This document shows positions 4,044 to 22,521 of a stretch of DNA of 64,000 nucleotides, piece by piece. The DNA comes from a virus: the IMG/VR virus record IMGVR_UViG_3300045988_146774, positions 64,001 through 128,000 of that record; one strand, 5' to 3'. The stretch's first letter is position 1. Each line of letters starts with the position of its first letter. The position numbers and the translations under genes are program-made. A model generated the notes under the pieces. That model saw only the letters and a program-made list of their open reading frames with translations. It was not told the origin of the DNA and made no database searches.

Positions 4044-4054
4044 GAGGTGATCGT

Positions 4055-5983
4055 TTGGCACAAGACGTATTAGATTTTAAAGTCAATATAGAAACAGAGA
4101 ATGCTGCTACTAAAATGGAAACTCTTGGTACTATGTATGACGAAATCAAAAATAAAATGGAGAAAGATAAAATTACTCCACAAATTGATTTATCGAAGGT
4201 CAAATCACAAGTCAAAGAGGTTCAAAATTTATTTTCAAATGCTGGAAAAGGCTCTGGCAAAAAGATAGATCTTTCTAATTTATTTACGGTTGATCCAAAA
4301 TCTTTTGATAAGGCAATGAGTTCTTTCTTCTCAAAAATGGATAAACAAATGAAGAGTCGTGCTTCCAAAGTAAGTAAAGATCAATCTGATCTTGCTAAAT
4401 TAATGGCAGCTGACAAAGCAAGTTCTTATCCGTATGCAGATGAGTTAAATGCCAAGAATCAAAAGCTTCTGAGACAATATTCTCGGCAAAATGTTTCCGG
4501 AGAAGATAGGAAGAATTTAGAGACTGCCATGAATCTTCAAGCACAAGTAGAGACATATCAGAAGCGAATGGCAAAAAGTATTTCGGATAATAATTTAGAA
4601 GCTGCAATTGCCGATTATGATAAATGGGCTTCATCTGTTGAGCAGTTAAATTCCGTATTGTCCATTCTTGGTAATACAATGGAAAAATCATTAGATACTT
4701 CTGCTGTTGATACCGCTATTTCTAAAGTCGAAAAATATAGAGACAGTCTGAAGAATGTTAGTGATGAGCAAAATAAAATGCTTGATAAAGTTACCAATAT
4801 GTACAATCAAGAAGGACTGACTCGAAGTGAAAAAATCAATGCGGACAAAGAGTTTCAGCAAGTTAAAAATGAGATCGCACATCAGAATAAATTAGCTGAA
4901 ATTCAAAGGGAAGCTTATTCTGGTAAATATTCTCTCACTTCTGCTAAGGCAGATACTTTCTTATCCAGATACAATGGACAAAGCTCTGAAGTTTTAAATA
5001 GAGCAAGGGCTGAGTTGGCTGAATATAAGAAAATATCTGAAGAGGTTGTTGCTCTATCTGATAAGAAGATTAAGGGAGAATTAATTGATACTTCCGGACT
5101 TGAAGAAAGTAAAGTTAAATTAGAAGAATGTGGCGAACGAATGAAGAATGTTCTCGAAGAAGTTCGTGTCGCTGAAAGTAAAACTCTTGATCCAAAGATA
5201 GCAACTTCTTCTGCTAACAGCGTTCAGAAGTATATGAATGACAATACAAAAGCTTTAAAGAAATATAAAGCTGAGTTTGAATCTGTCAGAGATATGTATA
5301 AGAACGCCACTACTGTTGGTGAAAAAAATACAGCGGATGTTGAATTTAAAAGATTGAAGTCTGCTGTTTCTGCTGAAGGATTGAATGGAAAAGGCTTATT
5401 CGGAAACTTAAGACAATCTTTTTCACAGTTATCTAAATTCAGCGGTGTTTGGGCTATGGCTCAAGGTGCTGTTGTTGATATTCCGAGACAAATTATGTCT
5501 GCTGTGACAGAAATTAATTCTGCACAGATTGAATTGAGAAAAGTTAGCAGTGCATCTGATAGTCAGTTGTCACAGTATTGGAATCAAGCTGCGGAAAGTG
5601 CCAAAAAATATGGTGCTACTGTTAGTGATGTTATTAGTAGCACTGCGGATTGGTCAAAACAGGGATATGGTCTAGATGATGCTAAGAAACTTTCTGATAT
5701 CACAACCTTGTATCAGAAAGTTGGAGACAATATGACGCAAGAAACTGCTTCGCAGAGTTTGGTTTCTACATTACAAGGTTTTAATATGCAAGCTGATCAA
5801 GCTGAATCTATTGTTGATAAGTCCAATGAGGTGGCAAACAATTATGCAATAGGATCAGATGGTATTGGAGAAGCTTTGCAGAGAAGTGCTGCATCATTTA
5901 ATGCTGCACACACAGATATTTCAAAGTCAATTGCTTTGATTACTGGAACCAATACAACACTTCAAGACCCGCAACGTGTCGGT
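4055..5983 (+). CDS. tail tape measure protein, exon 1 of 4
   Basis: TTG start 4 nt after GGAGGTGA. Long coiled-coil N-terminal region, then the TP901-type TMP core (..NYAIGSDGIGEALQRSAASF..ALITGTNTTLQDPQRVG). The conserved core motif breaks after GGT 5981-5983 and resumes at 7345 (NMWKTVSARLRG). The ORF-track tail CKHIADYY.. is intron read-through. Confidence 0.85.
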
Positions 5984-7344
5984 TGTAAACATATTGCCGA
6001 CTATTACAGTAATGTAATAAAAATAAAAGTGGCTATATCGGTTAATGTCCAGAAGTGGACAAGACCGAGGAAAGACTTGTATATTTTCGAAGCATATCAA
6101 TTAGGAAGGGTATGCTTTTATTAATTATAAAATTAAAATTAAGGAGATAAAATGCCAAGAAAAGGTAGTAAAACTGGATATACGATAAAATGTGAAAATT
6201 GTGGAAAAGAAATATATCAAACAAAAACTCAGTACAATAGAGCAAAGCATCATTTTTGTAGTAATAAATGTCAAAAGGATTTTCAACATAGACAACTATA
6301 TGAAAATAGAAAATGTCCGATATGTGGCTCCTTATTTGAAATAAGCAAGAAATCAAAACAAAAATTTTGTTCAACTAAATGTCAGAATGAATGGCAGAAA
6401 ACAAATACTGGTGAAAATAATGTTAGATTTAAAGGTTCTATCTGTAATTGCGATTGGTGTAATAAAAGGATAACAATTGGAAAGTCAAATATGGAAAGAT
6501 TTTCTAATCATTTTTGTTCTAATAAATGTAGACAAGCATGGTACTCAAATATTTATTCACAAAATGATACATGGAAAGAAGAATCTAGAATTCGAGCAGT
6601 TAAACTTTTAGAAGAAAGAAAAATAGATACAAATACAAAACCACAGATTATAATAAATAACTTGCTTGATGAATTGCAAATAAATTATATAAATGAAAAA
6701 AATTTGAAATATTATTCATTAGATAATTATTTAAAAGATAATAATTTGGCAATTGAAGTTATGGGAGATTTTTGGCATACCAATCCAATTGTGTATAATG
6801 AATTCCCATCAAAAGAAATACAAATAAAGAGAATATCAAAAGATAAAGCAAAACATACATATATTAAAAAATATTTTGACTATGAAATTTTATATTTATG
6901 GGAAAGTGATATTTATAAAAACTTGAACGTATGTAAAAAATTAATACAAAAATATATAAAAGAAAATGATCATTTACAAAATTATCATTCTTTCAATTAT
7001 CATATCGAAAATAATAATCTTATTTTAAATTCAAAAATAATTTACCCATATTTTGAAAAAGAATTAGTAGCATAGACTAATGCCTAATCATTTGGTTATG
7101 TGAAAAAGAAAATATACAAGAATCCGTAACGACTGTAACACTTTATATGGTAACATATAAAGTTTCGCCACTCTCCTATTAATATAGGATGAAGATCCAG
7201 TCTGAACTGTCAATAGACACTTCTATGAATTATTTCATAGTCGCCACGCTATAACTTAATGAAACGTGGGAATTAGCCAGAAATGACTAATCGCTATATT
7301 TAATATAGTCAGTACCATCTCACAAATGGGAAAGTAACAGGAAG
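5984..7344 (+). mobile_element. group I intron 1 (with homing-endonuclease ORF)
   Basis: P1: exon gtcggt 5978-5983 pairs with gccgac 5996-6001 (U.G at the splice site). P10: acatatt 5989-5995 pairs 7/7 with 3' exon aatatgt 7345-7351. The intron ends in G7344. P7: gactg 7131-7135 with cagtc 7198-7202. J8/7-like gaagatccagtc is present. Removal restores the frame and the TMP core motif. Confidence 0.8.
6152..7075 (+). CDS. intron-encoded homing endonuclease, zinc-ribbon repeats + Vsr-like/PD-(D/E)xK nuclease domain
   Basis: AAGGAGA RBS. Three CxxC...FCSxKC zinc-ribbon repeats at the N-terminus. The C-terminal segment LAIEVMGDFWHTNP...KDKAKH...ILYLWESDI resembles the Vsr/DUF559-type nuclease core (..GCFWH....WE..). 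It lies wholly inside intron 1. Confidence 0.7.
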   Translation: MPRKGSKTGYTIKCENCGKEIYQTKTQYNRAKHHFCSNKCQKDFQHRQLYENRKCPICGSLFEISKKSKQKFCSTKCQNEWQKTNTGENNVRFKGSICNCDWCNKRITIGKSNMERFSNHFCSNKCRQAWYSNIYSQNDTWKEESRIRAVKLLEERKIDTNTKPQIIINNLLDELQINYINEKNLKYYSLDNYLKDNNLAIEVMGDFWHTNPIVYNEFPSKEIQIKRISKDKAKHTYIKKYFDYEILYLWESDIYKNLNVCKKLIQKYIKENDHLQNYHSFNYHIENNNLILNSKIIYPYFEKELVA

Positions 7345-7923
7345 AATATGTGGAAAACGGTTAGCGCAAGATTGCGTGGTTCAGAATCTGAACTTAGTGC
7401 TATGGGTGAAGACACAGATGGTCTTGTAACCTCTACATCTAAGCTTCAGGCAAAAGTCAAAGCACTTACTGGTGGCTTTGACATTATGAAAGATAAAGAT
7501 ACATATAAAGATATCTATGATATTGTAGTTGGAATTGGTGAAGCATTTCCAAAGATGAATGACATAAATCGTGCTAGTTTGCTTGAACTTTTAGCAGGGA
7601 AAAACCAGTCAAATGCCCTCGCAGCAGCACTTCAGAACGTTGATGTGATAAAGAAGGCTTACAACACGGCTGCCAATGAATCAGAAGGATCTGCCGAAAA
7701 AGAATTTGACAATTATAAAAAATCGATCGATTATTCTATTCAAAATTTTAAGGCGCAGTTCCAATCTTTCTCATCATCCTTAGTATCATCTGACTTTGTA
7801 AAAGGAATTGTTGATAGTGGATCATCGGCACTTAATATCATTACGCAACTCATAGATAAAGTAGGCTTATTGAAAACTGCCTTCGCTACATTCGCTGGCG
7901 TAAAACTTTTCAAAAACTTAGAT
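7345..7923 (+). CDS. tail tape measure protein, exon 2 of 4 (3' end provisional: 7923, alternatively 7932)
   Basis: Continues the TMP core (NMWKTVSARLRGSESELSAMGEDTDGL...). The frame matches exon 1 across the 5983/7345 junction. The ORF-track tail (..LFYLNWSLHT) is probably intron read-through. Both 7923 and 7932 end in U and keep the frame with exon 3 at 12410. Confidence 0.7.
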
Positions 7924-8340
7924 TTGTTTTATCTAAACTGGTCACTTCATACATAAGAATATAACGAAAATGGTGTTGTAAACAAGTGTGTGTTGTTAAC
8001 GTTTTAAAATTAGGAAGATTAATTGCTGGGAAGCCTAATGCTTAATGAGCTACAACATAGTCGGAAACGGCAAGTGTGAATGCGACGAAAGTAGAAAAAA
8101 TCATTAAGATGACATATGGTGAAATAAAAGGCATCGGGAAGATGCTCCTAAGTGTCTAGTATAAGGGCAAAGGTTATAATAACCGACTAACTGATCAGCA
8201 ACGCACTGTTATAGAGAATATATAGCTGTATAGCAGGACGCTCAGAGACTACCGATCTTCGAAGTCAATATGACCTTACAGTATTGACTTATAATGTATA
8301 GTCCAAGAAACAATATATGTTTTGTTATTACATATTCAAA
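7924..8340 (+). ncRNA. group I intron catalytic core (ORF-less)
   Basis: P3: gaagat 8014-8019 with atcttc 8255-8260. J3/4-P4 taattgctggg 8020-8030 resembles aaauugcgggaaa of Tetrahymena. P4: ttgctg 8023-8028 with cagcaa 8196-8201. P7: gacta 8247-8251 with tagtc 8299-8303. P8: aagtcaata 8262-8270 with tattgactt 8282-8290. J8/7-P7 aatgtatagtcc resembles the consensus aagauauaguc. Confidence 0.7.
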
Positions 8341-8562
8341 TAAAATAACACGATGCCTTCTATCCCATCGTTATTGGCAATGGATAGAGAATAAATAACT
8401 ATAAACAATAATGGAGATTAGAAAAATATCTAATCTCCAAAATATAATATCGTGTCTCAGACCAGTCATAGTTTGAGATGCATATATTATAAGATATTTT
8501 CCGATTTCTGTAAATGGATTATGGAGAATATACAATTAGCTTACAGAAAGTGAGTGGCAATC

Positions 8563-8599
8563 CCCAACGGAGCTTGTGATGGCTCCGAAGGGTTTTCTT
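8563..8599 (+). terminator. rho-independent terminator (+ strand) inside the intron-2 island
   Basis: ccc-aa-cggagc (8563-8573) pairs with gctccg-aa-ggg (8582-8592), followed by ttttctt. Confidence 0.55.
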
Positions 8600-8642
8600 A
8601 AAAAGGAGGAAATTAATGGAATGATTCACAAATTCAAGTTAA

Positions 8643-8840
8643 TTATTTATTATGTAGTGTGAACATACTATGTGACATCATTTTAGCAATTGCCTTAGCT
8701 TTTTCATCACTGATGTCATCCTTAAAAGCGATAAGGAAAACAGCAATAATTTTAGAAATCTCATGAAGAGAAACATAAAGCATAAACGGAATCACTAAAT
8801 AGATGTTGTTTAAAAGAATTCCAAAAAATTCTTTCAACAC
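8643..8840 (-). CDS. small membrane protein (65 aa, hypothetical)
   Basis: GTG start after AAGGAGGG. Two hydrophobic stretches (IYLVIPFMLYVSL; IIAVFLIAF). A hairpin at 8413-8438 downstream on the - strand could be its terminator. Confidence 0.45.
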   Translation of the reverse strand: MLKEFFGILLNNIYLVIPFMLYVSLHEISKIIAVFLIAFKDDISDEKAKAIAKMMSHSMFTLHNK

Positions 8841-9071
8841 TACCCTCCTTTCTGTAAGATTAATTATCTTATTGGAAAATCAGGCAGAATAGCCCATTAG
8901 ATTTCCATCGTGCCATTGTCTTACACTGGCACTACCACGTAAAGATATGGTTACGAAAATCCGTGGAACTAAGCATATTGTGGTCATATGCTGATTTTGT
9001 AACAAATACATTATACCATTTTGTCAAAATTTGGAAATCCAGAACATACATTCAGAAAATAAATTAAACGG

Positions 9072-9410
9072 CTAATTGTATAAATTTCGGATTTTATCTT
9101 TATATGCAAAAGCAAGCGCACCTAGAAATTGTGCATTTGATGGACATTTGTTTGGAATATAACCGAATATTGGTTTTAGAATATCTTTTTGTTCATTAAA
9201 AAGATGTCGCACGACTGTACGAATGTTTGATTCTACGACCATTGTAGATGTATGGAATTTCTTTGCAATGGAAGGATATATGTCTTTTGTGATAAGATAT
9301 ATCTCATCATCTTCCACTTCGTTAATTAATTCAATCGCATATTTGATATATCGGTATCCTTTGTACCTCCGACTTATGCGACAGATGAATAAAAAGTCAT
9401 CAATTTTCAT
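9072..9410 (-). CDS. Spo0A C-terminal (DNA-binding) domain protein lacking a receiver domain
   Basis: Start at the ATG of MKIDD.. preceded by GAGGTGA. KGYRYIKYAIEL, ITKDIYPSIAKKFHTSTMVVESNIRTVV and FGY...CPSNAQFLGALA follow the Spo0A_C pattern (KGYxYLRxAI..TKxLYPxIAxxxxTTxSRVERAIRHAI..FGY...KPTNSEFIA) as I recall it. Confidence 0.7.
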   Translation of the reverse strand: MKIDDFLFICRISRRYKGYRYIKYAIELINEVEDDEIYLITKDIYPSIAKKFHTSTMVVESNIRTVVRHLFNEQKDILKPIFGYIPNKCPSNAQFLGALAFAYKDKIRNLYN

Positions 9411-9591
9411 ATAAATCACCTCATAAGTAAAAGATGCATTAATAATATACCATATTTAGCATACATTTCAAGATGTGACGTGCTAAGATTGTGTTAAGAT
9501 ATTAGTGTTAAATGTGTCGAATGGCAAAAATCACAATAAAACTATTATATTTTTGTGTATTATTTGTGTAGCATTTTCCCCATGGAACGGG

Positions 9592-9597
9592 TATAAT
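9592..9597 (+). promoter_or_regulatory. candidate -10 box (TATAAT) for the repeat-RNA/toxin operon
   Basis: Perfect TATAAT about 35 nt upstream of the tandem repeats. No convincing -35 was seen. Confidence 0.3.
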
Positions 9598-9631
9598 ATA
9601 AGCAAGAAAACAAAAGTTTTCTTATATACGT

Positions 9632-9751
9632 TTCACAATGTACGCCAAAGAAACATTGTATTTTGAGACAAACGTACTTCGCAATGTGTACCGAATTACA
9701 TTGTATTTTGAGACAAATTCCTTTCACAATGTAGGACAAAGAAACATTGTA
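9632..9751 (+). ncRNA. type III antitoxin-like tandem RNA repeats (ToxI/CptI-like), ~2.6 copies of ~45 nt
   Basis: ttcacaatgtacgccaaagaaacattgtattttgagacaaacgtac / ttcgcaatgtgtaccgaattacattgtattttgagacaaattcct / ttcacaatgtaggacaaagaaacattgta. The period is 45-46 nt. Each unit has an internal acaatgt..acattgt inverted repeat. Confidence 0.7.
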
Positions 9752-9787
9752 GAGGAGTGGTTCTGTTTAACAGATCACTCCTTTTTT
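9752..9787 (+). terminator. rho-independent terminator between repeat array and toxin ORF
   Basis: ggagtg 9754-9759 pairs with cactcc 9776-9781, followed by tttttt. The position matches the attenuating terminator of type III TA loci. Confidence 0.65.
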
Positions 9788-9803
9788 GATACATAGGAGA
9801 AAA

Positions 9804-10349
9804 ATGAAAGAACATGCTTTATATTTTGGGAAAAATGAGTATTATGAAATAATCAGAAGGAATGGTGGAACATGGAATGATTCAAAGGAAAGACCAATTG
9901 TATGTTTGATGAAATCCATAGAACACGAAAAGTTATATTGGGCTATTCCAGTTGGTAATTATTATCATAGAAATGAAGCTGCACGAGAAAGATTAGAAAA
10001 ATATCTTGGAAAAGATAAAAAGAATATACAATCTTGTTTTTATCATGTTGGAAATACAAATGAAAAATCTATTTTCTTTATAAGTGATGTTATACCTATT
10101 ACTGACAAATATATAGAACGGGAATATTTGAATAAAACAAGAAAGGTTCATGAGATAAAAAATAAAAAATTGTTAAATGAATTGGAGTATAAACTTAGTC
10201 GTATATTATCGTTTGAAAACAATAAACCAAATTATTTCCGTCAACACATTACAGACATTAAAACTTATCTGTTAGAAGAATTGAGACAGGAAGAATTACA
10301 ATCTCAAGAAGAAAACACAGAAGAACAAATCCAAGAATCAGAGCAGTAA
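9804..10349 (+). CDS. type III toxin, ToxN/AbiQ/CptN-like endoribonuclease (putative)
   Basis: ATG 9804 lies 3 nt after AGGAGA; the ORF-track start at 9786 overlaps the terminator. 181 aa. ERPIVCLMKS..EHEKLYWAIPVG and FFISDVIPI parallel the RPxxGIV...YxAPLTS and NxxxMIP segments recalled from ToxN/AbiQ. The repeats-terminator-ORF architecture is diagnostic. Confidence 0.65.
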   Translation: MKEHALYFGKNEYYEIIRRNGGTWNDSKERPIVCLMKSIEHEKLYWAIPVGNYYHRNEAARERLEKYLGKDKKNIQSCFYHVGNTNEKSIFFISDVIPITDKYIEREYLNKTRKVHEIKNKKLLNELEYKLSRILSFENNKPNYFRQHITDIKTYLLEELRQEELQSQEENTEEQIQESEQ

Positions 10350-10366
10350 TCACACTGCTCTTTTAT
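10341..10366 (+). terminator. rho-independent terminator after toxin gene
   Basis: gagcag 10341-10346 pairs with ctgctc 10355-10360, followed by ttttatt. Confidence 0.6.
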
Positions 10367-10442
10367 TATGTCAAAAATAAAGAGTAGAGAAAATTTTACC
10401 CTCTTCTATTCTACCACTTATATCCACAATCTTTACATTCAA

Positions 10443-10686
10443 ACTAACTACGTGCTGTTTTACTAAATATTCCAAGCAACCCTACTCCTACTGCTTTTGA
10501 TGCTGCGGAGATACGTTTGATATTTGTAAAATTGCATGTTGGGCAAGTTATTTGTGTGTTTGATTGTTGGCTTGAGGATTGATGTTGGGTGGATGTCGCA
10601 TTCCCTTTTACAGTACTCATTCTGTTTTCGTAGGTTTTTTCTGAAAATTGAAAACCGCCAAATTTATTAGCCAGAATACAGTAATA
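10443..10686 (-). pseudogene. truncated paralog of the C-terminal half of the zinc-ribbon gene 11789..12325
   Basis: The - strand frame reads ..ANKFGGFQFSEKTYENRMSTVKGNATSTQHQSSSQQSNTQITCPTCNFTNIKRISAASKAVGVGLLGIFSKTARS*. This parallels KKYGGNQFSECAYRHRL...THQHQSIQQQHITQVTCPYCKSTNTKKISAVSRAGSILGFGLFSKK. The N-terminal half and a proper start are missing. Confidence 0.55.
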
Positions 10687-10738
10687 TTACTAAATACAAT
10701 ACAATAGATTTATTTTTCATTTTGATATAAATAAAAAA

Positions 10739-10976
10739 AGAATAATACAATAAATAGACTCATCTCAGGTGCTAGACCACCAGGTGCATCAGTGAAATAA
10801 CGCAATTTACTATTATCTAGATGGTAAAGAACGCCAATGCTCACAAACATATTCCAGTCTACCGAAGCGGACTCTCGTATATTCGTGAACGTGTACTGGT
10901 TTCAGCACATTATACGTCATATAGCAATCACCTCCAAGATACACCCTTGAGATGAGCCTGTTTATTGTATTATTCT
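10739..10976. repeat. ~31-bp imperfect inverted repeats bracketing a 176-bp segment
   Basis: Left arm: agaataatacaataaatagactcatctcagg (10739-10769). Reverse complement of the right arm (10946-10976): agaataatacaataaacaggctcatctcaagg. About 28 of 31 positions are identical. Confidence 0.6.
10813..10920 (-). CDS. 35-codon mini-ORF inside the inverted-repeat element (hypothetical)
   Basis: GGAGGTGA then 7 nt then ATG. Product MTYNVLKPVHVHEYTRVRFGRLEYVCEHWRSLPSR. Below the ORF-track length cutoff. Confidence 0.35.
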   Translation of the reverse strand: MTYNVLKPVHVHEYTRVRFGRLEYVCEHWRSLPSR

Positions 10977-10984
10977 ATATTATT

Positions 10985-11677
10985 TTATTTGTTTTTATTT
11001 AATAATTTTTCTGCTTTTTCAAGTTCATATTTATTATGTATAGAACTTATTAATGCCTTTAAGAAACTTTTCATTTGCTCTATGTCGTATTCGGGATGTT
11101 TCACCATGTAATGTGTTTCGTCGTTTCCAAGCCACGTGGCTGCATTCGCTAATTTTTGTATAGGTTCAAATTCGATTTTTTGGCAACATTTTTCCAATCG
11201 GCATTCTCCAATAGCTTCTTTGGTTAGATTTTGTTCTTGTTGTAAATAGTCTTTCACAAGAAATTCAAGAGCTTTTCTGTAACCTGTGCCGGCTATTGTA
11301 AGCAAACCTTGTCTTTCACATTCACACGCCTCAGAAAATATTTTTGTAAAATCTGGATATTTGTCTTTAATATCTTGAGGAATTGAACTTTCTTCAATCT
11401 CTTTCGGATATGGATATCTAACATCTTTTTCAACATTTTTCAAACTACTTTTCATGTGATATAGAGATACATAATATTGTTTACAATTTGTACAATACCA
11501 AACTGCAAATAAAAGAGGCTTCTCCTTTTCATTGAAAGATCTAATTAAACATCCGTTTGCATATTCTGGTTTTCCAGACTTATGACATATTGGACATGTT
11601 GGTTCGATTTCTACAGAACTTGAAACTTTCGCATTTTCAATTTGTTTCGAATCAAATAATTTTATATCAACATTCAT
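10985..11677 (-). CDS. DUF4145 domain protein with N-terminal zinc ribbon
   Basis: 230 aa. N-terminal CPICH...YCTNCKQYY. The C-terminal segment TIAGTGYRKALEFLVKDYL...LGNDETHY fits the DUF4145 pattern (R.alE.l.kd...GN.aaH) as I recall it. Confidence 0.55.
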   Translation of the reverse strand: MNVDIKLFDSKQIENAKVSSSVEIEPTCPICHKSGKPEYANGCLIRSFNEKEKPLLFAVWYCTNCKQYYVSLYHMKSSLKNVEKDVRYPYPKEIEESSIPQDIKDKYPDFTKIFSEACECERQGLLTIAGTGYRKALEFLVKDYLQQEQNLTKEAIGECRLEKCCQKIEFEPIQKLANAATWLGNDETHYMVKHPEYDIEQMKSFLKALISSIHNKYELEKAEKLLNKNK

Positions 11678-11788
11678 TTATTGTCACATCCATTAACCTT
11701 ATACATAAAATTATATATTAATTGCTTTTTATTGTATATACGGAACTAATGTTTTGGTAATTTTTACCATAATTGATACATAAAGCTG

Positions 11789-12325: not shown

Positions 12326-12373
12326 ATTATTTCCTCCGAACAATCTTATAAATTTATTTAAGTATATCATGAA

Positions 12374-12402
12374 TTGTAAAAGTATGCCAATAATTTTATA
12401 TT
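12374..12402 (+). promoter_or_regulatory. candidate sigma70-type promoter immediately upstream of TMP exon 3
   Basis: TTGTAA 12374-12379, 17-nt spacer, TATATT 12397-12402. The predicted start falls within a few nt of A12407/G12409. No Shine-Dalgarno precedes ATG 12407. Confidence 0.3.
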
Positions 12403-12409
12403 CATTATG

Positions 12410-15400
12410 CAGTTTAAAGACTTAGGAAGTTTATTTGATAGTTTTGGAGAACTTAATTTTAAACATGCAAGTAAAGCCTCTTCTTTTGCGGATTTGGATG
12501 GAATAGATAAAAACACTATAAAAGGTTTGTTTAAAATAGATAACAATGATATTAGTGATTTTACAATGGCTCAAATTCAGGCAAAAGCAAGTACGATGGG
12601 ACTTACTGAGTCATTAACAGATGAATTAATGGCTATGTCAAAAGACGCTGATTTTACAGCCAAAGCAAAAGTCGGTAAAGTAACTTGGGGGGAAGCACTA
12701 AAAGAAGGTTCAACAAATGCGGATCAAATAGGGAAAGCATTAATGAAATCTTCCGATGTTTCCGATAAAGCAAAGAAAAAATTATCGGAAGTTTATGATA
12801 AATTTGGAAGTGGAAGTCAAGTATATCAAAAACAGATAGAAAATATTATAAATGGTGCAAATGGTTTAGATGATATTTCTGGTAAATTTACAACTCTTGG
12901 GGCTGATGTCCAAAAATCTACTGGAATGTTCGAATCCGCTGGTAATATTATCAAAGGATTCTTTGCATCAATAAAAGGGTATATTCCTATTCTTGCTGTT
13001 GCCGGAACAGCTTTCGCAGCGTTTAAACTTTGGGACTATTCTCAAACTGGATATACTAGAGCTAAAGAGAAAGCAGAAACTTCAGCTTCTACTTTTTCAG
13101 AAGATAAATCTAATCTCCAATCTCTTCAACAAGAACTTGATACAACAAAGAGTAAAATTGAAGAACTCAATGCTACAAAAGAACAGAATGGTGGATTGTC
13201 TCTTACTGATGAAGCGGAGTTATCTAGACTTGAACAAGAAAATGCCCAGTTGGAGCGTAAGGTCGCAATTCAGAAACAGCTCACAGAAATTTCCGCACAG
13301 GCTGCTTCAAGTGACGCTCGAAAAGCTGCCAATACTGCCCAAACATATTGGGATCATCTTAAAGAGAAAAATGGCGGAGGATTTTTTGGAACGCTAAAAT
13401 CTATTCCTGAATATTTTGCTACAAAACGTGAAGAAAAAGATGGAAAAGTTTATCTCACTAAGGAGAAAAATACTTGGGAAAAAGAAAATGGTGGTAAAGG
13501 AAATACCACTCTTGAAAATCAAACAAAAGCCAATATTAAAACGCTCAAAGATTACCAAAGTCAATTAGAAGATATTGAAACTCAACTTGGAAGTTCTGAT
13601 TTGACAAAAGGAGAAAGAAAAAGTCTCCAAAAACAGCAAAAAGAACTTAGTGAAAATATTGCTGATACAAAGCAGACTTTATCTACACAGACAGACCAAC
13701 TTCAGCAGTGGATTGATGCTTCATATGGGGCAGATGGAAAACTTGAGTCTGGAGCATCTAAATATGTAGATAATTGGAATAAAATCATTAACGATGTTAA
13801 CAATACTATCGGGCAAAAGACCAAAACACAAATTGACGCAAGTAATTTAGATACTTACTTCAACTCTTCTTCTGGTTCTGCTATGAAAGAATATTTGGAG
13901 AATATTGTTGAGGAAGGCGGATCTGCTCAAGATGCACTTGACGCATTTAGAGAGTCCGGAATGCGTCTCAAAGATATTGATGTTTCAGAAAATGGATTTC
14001 TTACATATTTTGAAGATGTAAAACGTCAGGCAGAGGAAGCAAAGCAAGCTGCGGAAGATTATTCCGCTTCTGTTTCAGATGTAGAATCTGCAACTGAATC
14101 TGCAAATCAGGACAAAGATTGGTCTACTATCCAAAGTGCTTATAAGGCTGCAAAGGAATCATTGAAAGAAGGCAAAACTGGAACCGATGATTTTCAGACT
14201 ATGGCAAAATTCCTTAACTCCAATGCGGTAAAGAAATATGCAGAGCAAGGCGGTAAATATACTGCTGATGCTTATCAGAAAGCTTTCCAAGAGGCAATGG
14301 GAACAGCCGATAGATGGTTTGGTGATGATGAAGCCACTAGTATGAAGAATTTCGTCAATGACTTCAAAAATAAAGGATTGTGGGATGTCTCTACTGACGC
14401 AATGGGTCTTTGGGATATCAAAACAAACTTTAATACAACTGCTGAAGCTGCTGACAAGTTTGGAATGAGTGTTGAATCCGTAGAAACAATGTTGCATGGT
14501 CTTGAAGCCTATGGATATGACTTTAGTGACATTATGTTTTCTGCTGAAGGTCTTGATGAATATAAGACAGCTCTTGACGGGATTAAATCTACATATGATG
14601 AAATGACGGATGGTGCTGCTAAAGATAGACTTGGATCATTGATTGATAGTTTTGAATCTGAATATGATAAATTCCAAAATGGAGATTTAAAGAATCTTAC
14701 AAAGGATCAGATTGTTAAAATTAAATTTGAGTATGATTTATCTCAAGTTGAGCAAAAAACTCAAGAGTTGATTGATCAAGCTGCAAACAGTGGCTCTAAT
14801 AATGATTTAGCCGGAGCAATAGTTTCTCAGAAAAAAGAGCGTGATTTATTAGAGGGACGGACGAAATATACAAAAGATTCTGATGAAGGGTATTCATATT
14901 CTTATGATCAGATTGATAAGCTCCAACAAAAAATGACTGGCGCAACAAAGACAGAACGAGCAGAGATTAATAAGCAAATTCTTGCATATCAAGAAATGCA
15001 AAATAATTTTCAGAAATACAGACTTGATGGTGGAGATTTAAATTGGAATGATTATTTGGATACTCCTTCTGCTACCGCTGCTTTTGATGAGATTATTAAA
15101 AAAGGTCTTATGACAAAAGACCAACTCAAAGATTTGTTTGGAGAAAAAGCAACTTATGAGATTGATGCAAAGCTCAACGACGATAATCTCCAAAGCAAAT
15201 TAAAGAAGCTTAAATCTGGTGAAAGCATTACTTTTAAAGCAGATGTTGGCGATATTGAGACTGATGTAGAGGCTGTAAAAAATGAAGACGGTACGGTAAC
15301 ATACACAGCAAATATTGGTGGAGTCCCAAAAGAAGTAAATAAAATTGCCGACGCTGAAGGCAAGATTCATTATACTGCTGATTTTGATGGTTCGAAGGAA

Positions 15401-18400
15401 TGGCTTGAGAACAATCTTAAAAAAGAAGAAACAATTACATTCAAAGCTGACGTTGCTGGGGTTACACAAGATATCCAAGCTTATAAAGACGAAGACGGTA
15501 CAATTCATTATTATAGTGTTTTAGACAATGGAACACGCAAAGAACTAGAACAACATAAAAATGAAGACGGTACAATTACCTATACTACTACTGCTGACAC
15601 TTCTGGTGTGGAAAAAGCGACCAAGAAAGCTAAGGAAAATGCTGAAAAGAATAAAATCGAATTAGAGATTACTGCAAAAGATACCAATCTTGTAGATAAA
15701 TATATACAAGAAAAACAGAAAAGTGACGCAGCGAAATCAAAACTATCAGATTCTGAAGCTGTACATGGTAATGTAGATAGTCGTGATCGTCCAATGATTT
15801 ATTGGGACAAAGAAAACCTTAAATCTAATAAATCTGCTCTTAAGAGTTGGGGGCAGAATCCAAAGGATTTAAAAGGATCTTATTCTACTGTCATGGGCGG
15901 AAGTGATGAATTTCAAGGTGTAGAAATTGCATATACTCCTGTGCTGAAGACTGGTGATGGAAAAGGTGAAGTTATCAGCAAAAACACAATGAGTAAGTAT
16001 ATTAACACTCTCATTGATCAAGCAAAATCCGCTGGTGACGGAAATTGGACTACTGAAGATTTATTAAAATTAGATTCTGAAGGTTTATTAGTCGACGGGA
16101 AGAAAATTTCTAATATGATTGCAGATGTTGGTGACACTGCCAAAGAAACCGGCGAAAAGATGCATGATATAGATGATTCTCTTTATTCCGAAGAATATGC
16201 AAAATACTGGGATGAAATTTCTGAAAAGGCTGAAAAGGCTAATATGTCCGTCGAGGATTATGTCAATACAGTTGCTTCTACTAGCGTAACATCAGATAAT
16301 CTTGTAACAAAAGATAATGGATTTGATAAAGTTGTTGAAAACGCAAAGAATGCTGTCGAGACATTAAAAGGGCTTGGTAATGAGAATCTTAAGTTAGATT
16401 TTGATTTTAAAACTACTAATCTTACAGATATAGAAAATCAAATTCAGCAAGCAAAGAGTAATCTTGATCAGTTTAAGAATGATGACGGTACTGTTAATAT
16501 GTCAATCAATGGAGCACAAGAAGCAGTTACAATTCTTGAGACATTGATTCAGCAAAAACAGCAAGCCTCTAATCCTGTAATAATGGAAGTAAGCACAAGT
16601 GGACTTGATTCCGGAGTATCTGGTGCGGTTTCAAAATTAAAGGAGTATCAAAATGCCTTAAACCAGCTTAATACTCTTAATGAATTAAAAACTGCCGGGG
16701 TACAAATTGATGATTCTCAAATATCTGATGCCGAGGATAAAGTAAATGGCTTATTTGATGAAATTCAGAAAGCTTCTGAAAAAGGTCAATTTAAAATAAA
16801 TGCCGATGTTTCTGTAGATTCATCTTCACAAGAAAAGCTACAGTCAGACCTTAAAAACATGACTCCGGAGATTAAAGCAAAAATTACTGCGGATGATTCT
16901 GACACAAAGAAAGATGGCAAGACTACTGAAGCAAAAGTAAATTACAAAAAAGGATCACAAGAAAAACCAAGTCCTAAAAATGCCAAAGTTAATTACAAAA
17001 AAGGTTCTCAGGCAAAGCCTAGTCCAAAGAACGCAAAAGTTAACTATAAAAAGGGTAGCCAGGCTAAACCAAGTCCTAAAAATGCCAAAGTTAATTACAA
17101 AAAAGGTTCTCAGGCAAAGCCGACATCTCCTAAAACAGCAACAGTTAACTATAAACTTGGTACAGTTGCAAAACCACCTGCTGTAACAGTTAAAGTTAAT
17201 TACGATACTTCTGGTGCACCTAAAGTTCTTGGAACAGCGCATGTAAAAGGATCTACTGGTGGTTTATATCCTATTCCACAATTATCAAGACGTGCACTGG
17301 CAAGCGGAACATTGTCTGATTCCTCATGGTTGAAAGATAGATGGAAAACGAAAGACTCTGAAATGGCTTTGGTTGGGGAGGTCGGACAGGAACTTGTAGT
17401 TTCTGGAAACAGATGGTACACCGTCGGTGATAATGGTGCGGAATTTGCTCATATTCCTGCCAAATCAATCGTATTCAATTCTAAGCAGACTGAAGAGCTG
17501 TTGAAAAAAGGGTTTACTAATTCTAGAGGCAAAGGCAATATATCATTACCTGGAACAGAAGCATTTGCATCTGGTACTGCTTACAGGTTAGGCAGCGGAG
17601 CCTCTTCTACTACAAATGCTAAGAAAAAAACTTCGTCTGGAACCAAATCCTACGGAACTTCAAAAGCGAAATCAAGCTCTGGTTCAAACACAAAATCCAA
17701 TTCCAATTCAAATCCTGATTCATCTGAATCAGCAGAAAAATCTGAAGAATTATTAGATTGGATTGAAACTCTGCTTTCAAGGACTTCTAGATTGACAGAG
17801 TTAGCCACAAGTGCTGTTGATCGTGCGGTCGGATTGGCTAATAAGCAGAATGCACTTGTAGATGCGGTTACAAAAACTCAGAATGAAATCACTACAAACC
17901 AAAATGCAGCGAATAAATATTTTGCTCAAGCAAATTCTCTTGGTCTTGCTCAAGGATATGTCGACAAGATTAAAAATGGTACTCTTGATATTGAATCAAT
18001 TACTGATGATAATCTTAAAGATAAAATCTCTAAGTACAAAGATTACTATGAGAAAGGCTTGTCTGCTCAAGATAAAGTCCTCGACCTTCAAGACAAACTT
18101 AATGAACTCTACCAGAAACGATTGGAAATCATAGAAAAAGAATATGATACTATCGTTGAGGTAAACGATTCATTAAAGGATATGCTTGATGCTAAAATTA
18201 GTTACAACTCTGCTTATGGCGTAGCAAATGACAATCAAGATAATATAGATAGTATCAATAAGTCTATCAAAGCACAAGAAGATACTATCAATCAGCTTAC
18301 TAAAAAGCTTGATGCATATCAGAAGGAAGTTAATTCTCAGATTACTTCCGGGACATTGAAGAAAGGTTCTGAAGATTATAGGTCTGCACAGAAAAATCTT

Positions 18401-19287
18401 AATGATTTTACGGCAAATATTTATAAAGCATCACAAGAACTTATCGAGTTACGGGATAAACTTGTACAGTTAAGAGCTGATGCAATTCAGACGATTATTG
18501 ATACGTTCAAAAGACGTTCTGATAAATTGGATAAGTATACTTCTCTTCTTGAAGCTAAAGATGAAACTGTACCAGAATCAGTATATCAGGAAAGACTGGA
18601 TAACAACAATGACACAATTCGTAAGAACCAAGAAGCCAGAGCCATTTGGCTAAAACGACAAGCAACCGAAGATGTAAATTCGGACAACTATAAGAAATAT
18701 GCTGAGGAAATCCAGAAACTTGATGAATCCACTCTTGACCTTATGAAAGACAACGAAGATTTAAAGAACTCTATCTATTCTCTCAGAATCAAAAATCTGG
18801 AAGATGCCATCAAAGGTTATGATGATTTGGAAACTGAGTTAAAAGGATTCAGAGATCTTTTAAATGACGATGCTTTCTTAGATAAAAAGGGTGGAATCAC
18901 AGATGAAGGATTGGCTCAGATTACTCTTCTCTCTCAGAGTATCGGAAATGCAAAACAGAAAATTTCTGACCTCACAACCGGACTTCAGAAAGTAAAAGAA
19001 CTTTATGATAATGGTGTTATCTCACTTAAAGAATATAACGAAAAATCTGCGGAATATCGCAAAGAACTTCAGTCTTCTACAAGTGATGTAAAATCTTATC
19101 AGAAGAGTTTGACTGATTTATATCAGAATGCTTTGAAAACAGAAGTGGATGCACTTCAAAAAGTCATAGATAAAAGAAAGTCGGCACAGACCGCCCTTGC
19201 TTCATATTACGATTTTCAAAAAAAAGTTACATCTCAAACAAATGATGTAAACAGCTTAAAAGCTCAAATTGCAGCACTCGAAGGGGT
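12410..19287 (+). CDS. tail tape measure protein, exon 3 of 4
   Basis: 6.9-kb open frame. It has a hydrophobic segment (GYIPILAVAGTAFAAFKLW), long coiled coils, EDGT-I/V-x-Y repeat modules and the TMP-type motif ALVGEVGQELVV. ATG 12407 lies in frame 3 nt upstream. The 3' end is set by the intron 3 P1 pairing; the tail TLFALFV is read-through. Confidence 0.8.
16934..17211 (+). repeat. 51-nt (17-aa) tandem coding repeat within TMP exon 3
   Basis: KVNYKKGSQ(E/A)KPSPKNA occurs four times, followed by degenerate copies (KVNYKKGSQAKPTSPKTA, TVNYKLGTVAKPPAVTV, KVNYDTSGAP). Confidence 0.85.
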
Positions 19288-19529
19288 AACATTATTTGCC
19301 CTATTTGTTTAATTGCTGGAACGCCCTTAGAGCTACATATACTACAACGAATACATGAAATAAGGTAAATCGTGAATGTTAAAAAATATGTAGATTGGGT
19401 AATCAGCAGCGAAATTCCGAACAGGAATACGTTCAACGACTAGGTAGGATGAGTGTACTACCGTAGGATCGCAAGCGATTGGCGATTCGAAAAATACAAA
19501 CTGTTTATTAATTAAATATAGAATTCATA

Positions 19530-19557
19530 AATCACGTTGAGATATACGTGATTTTTT
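19530..19557 (+). terminator. terminator-like hairpin inside intron 3 upstream of the endonuclease ORF
   Basis: aatcacg 19530-19536 pairs with cgtgatt 19547-19553, followed by tttt. It may limit endonuclease expression. Confidence 0.35.
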
Positions 19558-19603
19558 AGTGTGCGAATTTATTTAAAGAGAATAAAAGAAATGGAGGTGA
19601 AAT

Positions 19604-20893
19604 ATGCTAGTACCTAATCAAAAAGTTGAGGTATGCTGGAATAATACAACAAAAAAACATTATATGGAATTGGGATATGAATTTACAAAAATCAGAGATA
19701 AATTTCTTGTAAATGTTGAAGATTTAACACCTCATTCCGGAGAACAAATAAGCGTAATTTGTGATTACTGTGGCAATCAAAAAATGACAACATTCAATGA
19801 TTATAATTGTTCTATTAAAAAATATCCATATAAATATTCTTGTTCAGAATGCATCCCAGTAAAACAAAAAGAAATTAGAGGAAATAAATATAAAGGAAAA
19901 TATTTTAACGTATTTGTCAATAAATGTATTGAGAATAATTGTGTTCCAATTTCAACTATTGATGATTATCAAAATGCATATTCTAAGCTATATTTTATTT
20001 GTAGTAAACACGGACAACAATGTATAACTTATAATAGCATTAAGGCTGGGTCTTGGTGTATAGAATGTGGACATGATAAAGGGGCAAAAAAGATTGCAAC
20101 GCCAATAGATAAAGTAATTAAAATAGTTGAATCAAAAAATAATAATAAAATTATTAATCCAGAAGAGTACATAAATTTTAGCACTTCTAATCTTCTTATT
20201 AGATATGGATGCTGTGGAAAAGTTTCAACTACTTCATTGAACTCGTTAGAGAATAGTGATGGTCTATGCTATGATTGTGGACAAAAGAAAGCAAAAGAAC
20301 ATATAAAATTATCTATGGAAGAAGTAACAAAACGGATAAATTCTGTTAACAATAATAAATTGTTAAATCCAAGTGAATATATTGACAATTCTACAATTAA
20401 TTTAAAGATATTATGTGGAGAATGTAATAAAAATATTTTTATAACAAGCTTGGCTAATTATGAATATAATCAAAAAATACGTTGTGGAACATGTTCTCAG
20501 AGGATAAGCGTCCCGGAAAGAACAACACGAAATATTTTAGAAAAATATGATATAAAGTATCTTCCAGAATACAAATTCAAAGATTGTAAAGACAAAAGAC
20601 CACTGCCATTTGATTTTTATCTTCCAGAATATAATATTTTAATAGAATTAGATGGGGAGCATCACTATCATCCTAAATGGGGTGATGAGCAGTTGAAATA
20701 TATTCAAAATCATGATAAAATGAAAAACGAATATTGCGAAAATAATAATATCACTTTAATTCGAATTCCATTTTGGGAGTTTGATAATCTTGAAAAAATT
20801 CTTATAGAAAAACTTAATCTTCCACAAATCGTGGACATAGAATTATCCAATGGTCGAATTTTTAAATACAAAGCACACAAACCAAAAGAATAA
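19604..20893 (+). CDS. intron-encoded homing endonuclease, multiple zinc ribbons + Vsr/DUF559-like PD-(D/E)xK domain
   Basis: GGAGGTGA RBS. Four CxxC..CxxC modules. The C-terminal segment RPLPFDFYLPEYNILIELDGEHHY...ITLIRIPFWEF is typical of DUF559/Vsr-fold nucleases. It lies inside intron 3 between the P7 strands. Confidence 0.7.
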   Translation: MLVPNQKVEVCWNNTTKKHYMELGYEFTKIRDKFLVNVEDLTPHSGEQISVICDYCGNQKMTTFNDYNCSIKKYPYKYSCSECIPVKQKEIRGNKYKGKYFNVFVNKCIENNCVPISTIDDYQNAYSKLYFICSKHGQQCITYNSIKAGSWCIECGHDKGAKKIATPIDKVIKIVESKNNNKIINPEEYINFSTSNLLIRYGCCGKVSTTSLNSLENSDGLCYDCGQKKAKEHIKLSMEEVTKRINSVNNNKLLNPSEYIDNSTINLKILCGECNKNIFITSLANYEYNQKIRCGTCSQRISVPERTTRNILEKYDIKYLPEYKFKDCKDKRPLPFDFYLPEYNILIELDGEHHYHPKWGDEQLKYIQNHDKMKNEYCENNNITLIRIPFWEFDNLEKILIEKLNLPQIVDIELSNGRIFKYKAHKPKE

Positions 20894-20989
20894 TTAATAA
20901 ATAGAAGATATAGTCTAATCTCATATGAAAGTATGAGGAGAGTTATACTACTCTCTCACTTATGTAGCGAATAAGTGAAAAGATAAATG

Positions 20990-22517
20990 AAATGATGCTG
21001 CAACACTTGCAAAGAAAAAGAAGTTAGAACAACAGCTTAAAGATGCACAGGAAACACTCGATGATACTAAGCGTGACCATCGTAATGACCTCATCTCCAA
21101 AGGTTACGACAAGATATCTGATGACCTCAATCAGATGCTCGAAGATACCGAATATGAAATCTCACACAATGCTGATAAGCAGAATGAAATCATCCAGAGT
21201 ATGCTTAATAAGCAAGTTGGAATGTATCAGGAAGCCTACAGCAAAATCAATTCTATCATCAAGAACACTGGTTGGGTTGGAAGCAATGACTTCAATAACA
21301 ATCAGTCTCAGATGTCATCTCAGACAGGTGCACAGAATCAAGCGTCTAACGCATCTCAATCTCAGCAGACAGCAAACAGCAAACCATCTAGTTCTGCATC
21401 CGGCACAGATACAAGCGGAATCAAAGATAATTCTTCAGAGAACAATAAGATAACTGAAAATATTATGAAGCCTGAAAATACAACAAACAGACCTGTTGCA
21501 GAGCTTAAAGTATCCAAGTCATCAGTATCTATTGAAGAAGGAAAGTCTACTTCTGTTACTACGAAAATCAGACCGAATGATGCTGCCAATAAGAAATTAT
21601 CTTGGAAGTCAAGTAATACTGCTATTGCTACAGTATCAAATGGAACGATTAGTGGTAAGAAGCCGGGTTCATGTCAGGTAACAGTATCTACCACTGATGG
21701 ATCTGGAATTTCTAAGACTATTGCTGTTACCGTTACAAAGAAGCCAGATCCTCCGAAACCAGCACAGAGCAACACAAATAAATCTGGTGGAGATGGAGTA
21801 CCTAGAGTTGGTGATGTTGTAACATTTAATGGAAAATATTACTACGATTCTTGGGGAAAAAGACCTGCCGGAAGTTTATATTCTGGTGTCAAGAATGGTG
21901 TTGTAATTGATAGCTATTCTAGCAGAGAATATGGCGGAAGTGCTAGATATACAGGAGATCTTAAAGTTCATATCAAATCTAGGGATGGAAGATATGGAGA
22001 TTTGGGATGGGTAAGATTAAGTCAGATTAGCGGATATGCGAAAGGTACTCCGGGAGTTGACAGAGATCAAATTGCCATTGTGGATGAAGAAGGTCGTGAA
22101 CTTCAGATTCCTAATGGTAAAGGTGGAAGAATCACAAAGCTTGAAAAAGGCACTGGTGTAATTCCACATACTGCAACCGAAAAACTCATGGCTCTTTCTG
22201 AACAGCTTGATAACAATGGAAACATGGTTATTAATGGTAGAACGATTGAAGAGTATGTTAATGATATGGCTAATATGCAGAGTATTGCTGTGCCAGATTT
22301 CAGTGATGTTACTGCTTCTGTCGTTAGTCAGTTAGAAGGCAAAGGTATGGGTAATGTGACGGTTGAGAATCATTATGATTCGTTGTTGACTGTAGAGGGT
22401 AATGTTGACAAAGATGCATTGCCTGGATTAGAAGATATTCTTAAGAGATCGTATGAATACACGTCTAAGCAGATGGTCAAAGAACTTCGAAAAGGCGGTA
22501 TGCAGATTCGGAGATAA
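20990..22517 (+). CDS. tail tape measure protein, exon 4 of 4
   Basis: The frame is open from 20991 (NDAATLAKKKKLEQQL..). It contains a Big_2-like Ig domain (VSIEEGKSTSVTTKIRPNDAANKKLSWKSSNTAIATV..), an SH3-like segment and a second TMP-type motif IAIVDEEGRELQIP. TAA stop at 22515-22517. Confidence 0.8.
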
Positions 22518-22521
22518 TTAA

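Follow-up and report, generated by a model that had tools for sequence, protein, structure and literature searches.

The 64,000-nucleotide stretch of DNA analysed here, hereafter the window, comprises positions 64,001 to 128,000 of the IMG/VR virus record IMGVR_UViG_3300045988_146774 and very probably carries, within positions 4055-22517, one tail tape measure protein (TMP) gene of a large phage interrupted by three group I introns. A single pre-mRNA of about 18.5 kb would be transcribed from the gene, three group I ribozymes would excise themselves from it, and the ligated exons would be translated into a protein of 3,637 residues; that the three introns are spliced in vivo is what we infer from the sequence comparisons given below. 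We take the second intron to be a group I intron of 4.5 kb that lacks an endonuclease, is widespread in its phage family and has a hypervariable gene island in its 3′-terminal loop.

The open frames on the plus strand of the region are located at 4037-6121, 7309-7953, 12380-19309 and 20991-22514, and the 4.4-kb stretch between 7953 and 12380 possesses no long plus-strand frame that continues the TMP gene. When the segments 4055-5983, 7345-7923, 12410-19287 and 20990-22517 are joined (10,914 nt), a single frame of 3,637 codons and a stop codon results, with no internal stops. The start codon, TTG at 4055, is preceded by a strong Shine-Dalgarno sequence, aggaggtga, and exon 1 closes on the whole codon GGT at 5983. 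A preliminary description of this DNA, made from the letters and their open reading frames (ORFs), had likewise proposed four exons and three group I introns with a spliced frame of roughly 3,640 codons, the TMP core breaking after ..LQDPQRVG (5983) and resuming at 7345, and further breaks at about 7923 and at 19287; the codon count agrees closely, and all of these junctions could be located. A tblastn search with the first two frames joined gave matches in 135 phage records, and those listed are mostly annotated as tape measure proteins.

Related loci were found mainly among uncultivated viruses. The IMG/VR scan gave 35 of them (designated below with the letter L), on contigs of 25-211 kb, and the GenBank gut phage MT835469 (MT835469.1, L001) is also related. 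Close relatives are also present in metagenome 3300045988, and contig L045, described below, is contained in run SRR32503442. No match was obtained when the 20-kb region was compared by megablast with 50,697 phage records, and scanning of GTDB genome contigs gave one weak match only, in Bariatricus massiliensis, so the window is not a prophage of any representative genome.

Alignment to intron-less TMP homologues, which had been named beforehand as a comparison that could overturn the four-exon arrangement, showed the flanking sequences to be contiguous at all three junctions. Junction 1, which reads ..DPQRVG/NMWKTV.., is contiguous in at least 25 relatives with an identity of up to 75% over 138 residues, as well as in the TMP of Brevibacillus phage Sundance (2,528 residues). 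Junction 3, reading ..AALEGV/NDAATL.. after splicing, is contiguous in 9 related loci (L003, L037, L021, L001, L026/27, L007 and L006/8). As for junction 2, the BLASTP alignment of ..GVKLFKNLD/QFKDLGSLF.. from the window with ..GVGLFKNRDTLTDIGSVF.. from protein P0247 (shorter form ..GLFKNRDTLTDIGSVF..) is gapless, and this stretch of P0247 is encoded by uninterrupted DNA on contig L045, which represents an intron-2-less allele. A word-indexed protein search with a junction-spanning query had returned no fused proteins and first suggested a universal split at this position; that was overturned by an exhaustive phmmer search for fused homologues among 1.84 billion representatives, in which P0247 (1,893 aa) was aligned in one stretch over query residues 4-301, P0250 over residues 2-300, and P0374 (2,331 aa) across the junction at its own residues 1109-1233, with P0312 and P0357 giving further single-stretch alignments over the junction. 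The exon boundaries, the reading frame and the collinearity with intron-less alleles are observed results.

Due to the collinearity at all three junctions it is unlikely that the region consists of two separate genes, one for a protein of about 836 residues with the TP901-type core (exons 1 and 2) and the other for a protein of about 2,800 residues (exons 3 and 4), with an accessory island between them and a ribozyme core that is a relic or otherwise employed. Such an organization is suggested by gene callers, which in hundreds of relatives give proteins of about 780 aa with a PF10145 match ending here, as well as by an ATG at 12407 in the window and a promoter-like site overlapping 12374-12402. 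However, the codon before exon 3 is ATG, TTG, AAG, TCG, ACG or even the stop codon TAG in relatives and always ends in G; since AAG, TCG, ACG and TAG are frequent, this codon is not a start codon, and several lineages therefore have none at the conserved N-terminus of the large ORF. In addition, no Shine-Dalgarno sequence was found upstream of exon 3, unlike exon 1, the guide located beside the internal guide sequence (IGS) of the intron changes in step with the 7 nt that open the large ORF, one polypeptide covers both parts in the intron-less alleles, and the pair of hydrophobic segments split at junction 2 is continuous in the Sundance TMP. Altogether we consider the probability of two genes to be very small and treat the region below as one gene.

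The conserved TMP core is broken at different places in different relatives, namely near exon-1 residues 537, 593 and 632/643 and exon-2 residues 12, 77-85 and 126, with every one of these positions being uninterrupted in other relatives, as should be the case if the introns are mobile. With at least seven insertion sites, the TMP core in this family of phages is a hotspot for introns. Several relatives carry introns in the TMP core at positions where the window has none (L001 at 21057-25029; L015, L017, L034 and others), some of which contain HE3-like or HE1-like ORFs (named after the window's ORFs described below) and some no ORF, as in L034 (about 540 nt).

For the second interruption the preliminary note had named 7900-8400 as the stretch to be searched for a group I intron. 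The break itself stands, but it is not an element of about 500 nt: intron 2 covers 7924-12409 and the core alone takes up about 8014-8323, so that an intron of 4.5 kb, devoid of a homing endonuclease and containing a partly antisense multi-gene island, had gone unnoticed. The layout we propose places a core of about 450 nt right after exon 2 and the last 25 nt or so right before exon 3, with about 4 kb of unrelated accessory genes that would lie between them in the 3′-terminal peripheral region. As read from complementarity and motif order, the helices P3 (8014-8019/8255-8260), P4 (8023-8028/8196-8201), P7 (8247-8251/8299-8303) and P8 (8263-8270/8282-8289) and the joining segment J8/7 (8290-8298, TATAATGTA) follow each other in the canonical order. 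Part of the P5 extension shares 89% identity over 55 nt with an endonuclease-bearing intron of L037, and the RNA following exon 2 in relatives has 5′ and 3′ ends homologous to those of intron 2. Two other approaches were abandoned: RNAalifold, applied to three IA2-like cores, put the 3′ half of intron 2 of the window out of register, so that its result was discarded, and a regular-expression scan for core motifs was too noisy for mapping introns.

In all relatives the exon-2-like frame ends at a conserved ..FKN[LVI][DG] or an equivalent, after which there is an immediate stop codon or a short non-conserved tail, then 2.6-7.1 kb and a giant ORF. A 7-nt guide directly 5′ of the guide that pairs with exon 2 complements the first 7 nt of this giant ORF, and such adjacency of the P10 and P1 guides is the canonical group I arrangement. 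In the window, the P10 guide is at 7934-7940 and the IGS at 7941-7943, the latter pairing with GAT at 7921-7923. The guide changes together with its target from lineage to lineage: TAAACTG faces the exon 3 start CAGTTTA in the window and L010, TAACTTG faces CAAGTTA in L003 and L033, GTGCAAG faces CTTGCAC in L004, TGAATGT faces ACATTCA in L005, TGAATAT faces ATATTCA in L008 and L026, and TTTACAA faces TTGTAAA in L022; in L030 no P10 partner was found. The complement of the window's guide occurs at none of the 10,419 other G-preceded sites of the 64-kb window. Covariation in P1 and P10 was evaluated on mini-constructs from 15 lineages, and 90.8% of the cells are standard pairs compared with 62.5% in shuffles (0 of 500 as high) and 25-38% in slid registers, these values being inflated by the fact that in several lineages the sites were picked by maximal complementarity under an in-frame constraint. 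Changes on both sides were observed for all seven P10 pairs and five of the six P1 pairs, and the pair at the cleavage site is U.G in 14 of the 15 lineages; we count this covariation among the observed results. The remaining lineage, L019, has C.A instead (about 11161/11213, GTCGGC/ACCGAC), a pair that would keep the wobble geometry at the cleavage site.

The 3′ splice site would be located by means of the 7-bp P10 with the start of exon 3, the terminal G and a helix of 7-10 bp closing the cargo loop. Near the 3′ end of the 5′ piece there is a conserved hairpin (8351-8355/8366-8370) with covarying stems CGATG/CATCG, ACGCCAG/CTGGCGT and CGTCAG/CTGACG in the window and the closest lineages. It is followed by 8370-8379 (GTTATTGGCA), which complements 12385-12394 (TGCCAATAAT), 15-25 nt upstream of the terminal G; the corresponding strands of relatives are TGTTGGA/TCCAACA, TTGTTGGAT/ATCCAA[CT]AA and GTTTGTTGG/CCAACAAAT. 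In this closing helix 88.6% of the cells are paired, against 23-53% in slid registers and 83.2% in shuffles, so covariation is modest, 31 of the 500 shuffles equalling the observed value. When the best long-range helix between the two pieces of intron 2 was sought without bias, nothing better than the shuffled controls was obtained, and for this reason the closing helix rests on positional conservation; it is conserved, not proven, and would be functional in the arrangement proposed here. A second group of relatives has, as its 3′ piece, a local hairpin with covarying stems GATG/CATC, CAAGT/ACTTG and TGCTT/AAGCA and a conserved loop, TCAAACA.

The island between the two pieces is variable in both length and content. 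In 23 related loci the intron-2 interval measures 2.6-7.1 kb and contains 111 ORFs of at least 80 codons that fall into 56 clusters, and loci with almost identical intron-2 ends have cargo of 3.4 to 7.0 kb; as the cargo length differs despite near-identical intron ends, the island is a hotspot of gene turnover. This variability is likewise an observed result. The only widely conserved cargo gene is the antisense zinc-ribbon gene by the 3′ splice site, present in 19 of the 23 loci. The cargo of other loci includes genes for GmrSD_N and DUF3800 proteins, a TnpB (OrfB_IS605) gene and an IS21-like transposase gene. The insertion-sequence genes were noted in the intron-2 cargo of L003 (TnpB/OrfB_IS605, 11668-12777), L021 (the same type, 11410-12519) and L019 (IS21-like rve transposase, 14806-16362); transposable elements evidently land in intron 2 without disrupting the tape measure gene. 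The PADLOC search of the window's own cargo genes gave no match. The RNA motif RF02920 in the cargo is the sole Rfam family above its gathering score in the window and hints at a Fusobacterium-type host. Just downstream of the 5′ closing-helix strand, the minus strand of 8412-8439 has a strong hairpin (GGAGATTAG..CTAATCTCC) with a run rich in T behind it, and this looks like a terminator keeping antisense cargo transcription out of the ribozyme core.

Introns 1 and 3 are group I introns of the ordinary mobile kind found in phages. All the P1, P10 and P7 elements and the terminal G that the preliminary description had quoted for them were found at the positions given there. In intron 1, the exon end gtcggt (5978-5983) pairs with gccgac (5996-6001) to form P1, the guide acatatt (5989-5995) pairs with the start of exon 2, aatatgt (7345-7351), to form P10, P7 consists of gactg (7131-7135) and cagtc (7198-7202), and P6 (6076-6087/7109-7120) closes the ORF-bearing loop. 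The ribozyme family of this intron was found at three insertion sites with the guide altered to suit each exon: the exon end GTCGGT is matched by the guide GCCGAC in the window, GTAGGT by GCCTAC in L030, GAGGT by GCCTC in L026 and L033, and AGAGGT by GCCTCC in L010. RNAalifold analysis of 7 family members with the ORFs removed predicted a consensus of 55 pairs, and compensatory changes were seen in 22 of these. The cleavage site is U.G in all seven, P7 (GACTG/CAGTC) is invariant, and P6 is wholly different in sequence in each lineage yet fully complementary, with compensation in 6 lineages.

Intron 3 has P1 formed by ggggt (19283-19287) and gccct of the IGS (19298-19302), with a U.G pair at the cleavage site, P10 formed by the guide attattt (19291-19297) and the start of exon 4, aaatgat (20990-20996), and P7 formed by gacta (19439-19443) and tagtc (20911-20915). 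P3 to P7 occupy 19303-19501, P8 (19504-19514/20891-20901) closes the ORF loop, J8/7 and the second strand of P7 are at 20902-20915, and P9 extends up to about 20937. Contig L045 contains, at 6320-7033, a group I intron of about 715 nt inserted exactly at the site of the window's intron 3 (GGGGT followed by GTTTGCCCT..), in which no gene was called and no plus-strand frame of at least 60 codons is open. This suggests that the endonuclease gene was lost there or that the site was invaded before the ORF was acquired.

Both introns carry a free-standing ORF, HE1 in intron 1 and HE3 in intron 3, each preceded by a strong Shine-Dalgarno site. According to the preliminary description both combine zinc ribbons with a Vsr/DUF559-like nuclease domain, which is borne out for HE3 and plausible for HE1. 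HE3 matches PHROG 559, 9084 and 7140 (annotated as HNH, homing and intron-encoded endonucleases), and DUF4379 treble-clef zinc fingers are present in 17 of its 24 homologues. The AlphaFold2 model of HE3, with a mean predicted local distance difference test (pLDDT) value of 89.6, was compared with the PDB using Foldseek, the top match being 3r3p_B, the catalytic domain of I-Bth0305I (probability 1.0, target template modelling (TM) score 0.74), followed by Vsr (1vsr) and a DUF559-like protein (3hrl). On the basis of this model HE3 is assigned a predicted Vsr-like PD-(D/E)xK catalytic fold, which we count among the established results; PDB sequence searches with HE1, HE3 and the HE3 profile gave nothing useful, and the structure comparison of HE3 alone succeeded. 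HE1 has three treble-clef/zinc-finger Pfam repeats (aa 9-44, 53-84 and 98-129) and matches PHROG 1271 and the PADLOC model HEase. Its Vsr match is weak (PF03852, E 0.08, aa 159-210) and it is linked to the nuclease domain of the HE3 family by hhalign with an E value of 6e-4, so it is plausibly, if weakly, assigned the same Vsr-like fold. HE1 and HE3 would each spread their own intron to intron-less alleles, and the patchy presence and absence of introns among relatives is consistent with such mobility.

Several observations weigh against the arrangement of three spliced introns, in addition to the way in which P1 and P10 sites were picked and the modest covariation of the closing helix. The case for splicing is built on sequence and not on transcripts, and the spliced product of a close relative was not found in the protein collections searched. 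The closing helix is absent from the minimum-free-energy fold of the 3′ region with the cargo deleted. The search with the Rfam group I model, put forward as a check in the preliminary description, gave sub-threshold matches to intron 3 only: RF00028 matched this intron at 19303-19501 (P3-P7; 37.8 bits, E 1.3e-7) and at 20758-20937 (J8/7, P7′ and P9; 25.6 bits, E 6e-4), and since the model is split by the ORF, neither match reaches the gathering score of 50 bits. Intron 1 gave no match in 5900-7400 at E values up to 10, plausibly owing to the ORF of 924 nt within P6 and to a bias of RF00028 towards certain subgroups. No group I match was obtained in a permissive scan of 7850-12500, nor in scans of the intron-2 RNAs of two relatives (L005 and L010), and the assignment of the intron 2 core therefore rests on the reading of helices and motifs. 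As the comparative structure is strong, the silence of Rfam is treated here as insensitivity of RF00028 and not as refutation of the introns.

Two further points of this kind concern the 5′ splice site of intron 2. In the window the exon contributes just 3 bp to P1 (GAT/GTC), compared with 5-6 bp in relatives, and TTAGAT (7918-7923) can form a competing hairpin with ATCTAA (7931-7936) that overlaps the P10 guide by 3 nt. Both would fit an intron 2 that is dead in this particular phage, with P1 degraded and the cargo overgrown, leaving a defective element or a truncated tape measure. We regard this as highly unlikely, since the four exons are still open over 10.9 kb, the P10 is a perfect 7-bp match unique in the window, and a near-identical 3′ piece is present on L043, another viral contig (122 kb). 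Moreover, 3-bp exon pairings are functional in the tRNA introns of Azoarcus and Anabaena, and the P1 helix of the window can be extended through GTTT/AAAC. It may be speculated that, owing to the competing hairpin, the first step of splicing waits for exon 3 to become available.

The remaining points against bear on the transcript itself: a plus-strand terminator-like hairpin at 10340-10361 lies within the cargo and three cargo genes are antisense to the pre-mRNA, which makes a continuous 4.5-kb intron transcript less certain. They would fit an intron 2 that is spliced in trans, with exon 2 and the core on one transcript and the tail of about 25 nt and exon 3 on another, joined via the closing helix and P10 and leaving the cargo outside the precursor. 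The minus-strand terminator at 8439-8412 would shield the core, and every catalytic element is on the 5′ piece; all that is required of the 3′ piece is its strand of the closing helix, the terminal G and the target of P10. On the other hand, in all 35 viral-contig relatives the halves of intron 2 lie next to each other with unchanged order and strand, as cis-splicing predicts, and no convincing plus-strand promoter was found upstream of 12385, the best candidate (12374-12402) being one that would start transcription downstream of the closing-helix strand. To our knowledge there are no natural trans-spliced group I introns in bacteria or phages. Because synteny is conserved and no suitable promoter was found ahead of 12385, cis-splicing from one long transcript is favoured, with less confidence than we place in the three-intron model, and trans-splicing appears rather unlikely.

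Finally, the 4.4-kb island might be cut out of the DNA by site-specific excision before late expression, similarly to the intervening elements of sporulation genes. The end of exon 2 (AAAAACTTAGAT) and the start of exon 3 (TTTAAAGACTTAGGA) resemble each other over a short stretch, which might be taken for a direct repeat. Nevertheless, no recombinase was found in the window's cargo, a ribozyme core is present, and in every lineage the boundaries are those of a group I intron (a U.G pair at the 5′ site, terminal G, adjacent P10 guide and IGS), making this explanation barely credible. The features are listed in Table 1.

Table 1 Features of the tape measure gene region; coordinates are those of the window
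Feature	Coordinates	Strand	Description
TMP exon 1	4055-5983	+	643 codons; TTG start; N-terminal half of the TP901-type core; PF10145, E 1.5e-12
Intron 1, group I	5984-7344	+	1,361 nt; ends in g7344
HE1 ORF	6152-7075	+	307 aa; free-standing, in the P6 loop of intron 1; putative homing endonuclease
TMP exon 2	7345-7923	+	193 codons; rest of the TP901-type core; ends in the first hydrophobic segment (..KLFKNLD)
Intron 2	7924-12409	+	4,486 nt; ribozyme core at the 5′ end, cargo of about 4 kb, 3′ tail of about 25 nt ending in G
Intron 2, 5′ ribozyme piece	7924-8379	+	From complementarity and motif order; core about 8014-8323
Intron 2, cargo island	8380-12384	both	4 ORFs of more than 100 codons, three on the minus strand; RF02920 RNA motif
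Spo0A_C-domain gene	9072-9419	-	PF08769, 1e-20
Fusobacteriales-1 RNA motif RF02920	9624-9750	+	73.5 bits; three similar hairpins (CAATGT..ACATTG); 36 nt upstream of ORF 9786-10349
Cargo ORF	9786-10349	+	Terminator-like hairpin 10340-10361 at its end
Truncated zinc-ribbon paralogue	10423-10686	-	45% identity to residues 100-190 of the zinc-ribbon protein, 1.1 kb away
DUF4145/phrog_1305 gene	10985-11677	-	
Zinc-ribbon gene	11789-12325	-	On the other strand, right beside the 3′ end of intron 2
Intron 2, 3′ tail	12385-12409	+	3′ strand of the closing helix at 12385-12394; terminal G 12409 is the G of an apparent ATG
TMP exon 3	12410-19287	+	6,878 nt; first 7 nt CAGTTTA fully complementary to the P10 guide
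Intron 3, group I (IA2-like)	19288-20989	+	1,702 nt; ends in g20989
HE3 ORF	19604-20893	+	429 aa; free-standing, in the loop of P8 in intron 3; zinc-finger repeats of the DUF4379 type and EDxHD/Vsr-like nuclease domain
TMP exon 4	20990-22517	+	1,528 nt; first base finishes the split codon GT/A; Big_2 domain PF02368, E 3.5e-10
DUF6558 phage tail gene	22575-23588		Directly downstream of TMP exon 4

The two ORFs upstream of the TMP gene gave no family match, so tail chaperone genes were not confirmed there. The cumulative GC skew of the window peaks at about 36000, where the GC and AT skews flip sign; the change indicates that plus-strand genes give way to minus-strand genes, forming two divergent or convergent modules.

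Introns in TMP genes have been described previously in prophages of the Bacillus cereus group, where group I introns occupy three sites (TMP-IVS1, IVS2 and IVS3) with P1 and P10 adapted to each site (Tourasse and Kolsto 2008, PMC2504315). The genes described here resemble them in the host gene, in having several sites in the conserved TMP region, in the related ribozymes with adapted P1 and P10 and the different ribozymes at the same site, and in the IA1/IA2-type phage classes. They differ in that at most two introns of ordinary size were reported per prophage TMP gene (PMC2504315), compared with three in the window, one of which is of 4.5 kb with a multi-gene island, and at least seven sites among the relatives. 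Two or three introns per gene are known from the polymerase and terminase genes of Bastillevirinae, with a mean intron of about 800 nt (PMC11878797), and from orf142 of phage Twort (Landthaler and Shub 1999). The shared features are the three introns in one structural or essential phage gene and the endonuclease ORFs in peripheral loops; those introns, however, hold at most one endonuclease gene each, and unrelated or antisense genes have not been reported in them. HE3 belongs beside the EDxHD homing endonuclease family known from I-Bth0305I (Taylor et al. 2011, PMC3239194), as both are intron-encoded in phages and the nuclease domain of the HE3 predicted model superposes on the Vsr-like fold of the latter, with the differences being an identity of only 21% and the long N-terminal array of DUF4379-type zinc fingers in HE3.

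Giant gene-harbouring group I introns were previously known only from the mitochondria of hexacorals, in which ND5-717, of 18-19 kb, carries its genes within P8 and leaves the transcript by back-splicing (Chi et al. 2019, PMC6545197). Intron 2, by contrast, is found in a phage, and its cargo is placed in the 3′-terminal region after P9, is hypervariable between close relatives and is partly antisense. With regard to split introns, the 5′ and 3′ parts of intron 2 are kilobases apart across other genes and must meet by base pairing. This resembles the trans-spliced group I introns of organelles, such as those in placozoan and lycophyte cox1, which are broken inside the core, typically in L8 or L9, and whose parts are transcribed separately; unlike them, intron 2 keeps the whole core on its 5′ part. 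In the literature searches, multi-gene or antisense cargo was not found described for any group I intron of phages or bacteria. Multi-intron tape measure genes are therefore already known, and it is the cargo-bearing giant phage group I intron that appears to be new.

Phage group I introns are usually viewed as small selfish elements of 0.2-1.5 kb with at most one endonuclease gene. A wider proposition, to which we give even chances, is that in phages of 90-210 kb from human-associated metagenomes the terminal loop of a TMP group I intron serves as an insertion hotspot for a hypervariable accessory island, that tail assembly would need a ribozyme bridging, in cis or in trans, kilobases of partly antisense foreign DNA, and that TMP output may be coupled to transcription of the island. 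For the phage itself, hundreds of these tape measure genes are annotated as two unrelated proteins, and recognition of the introns corrects the predicted length to 3,637 residues. Tape measure proteins follow a rule of about 1.5 angstrom of tail per residue, so that the tail would be roughly 0.5 micrometre long. If it is true that the intron tolerates an interchangeable island of 3-7 kb and conserves it throughout a phage family, the size limit of bacterial and phage group I introns is raised several-fold, and these phages offer a tractable system for studying how a ribozyme reaches a 3′ splice site that is kilobases distant and whether trans-splicing ever occurs in phages; accessory or defence-related genes could then reside safely within essential genes by occupying ribozyme loops.

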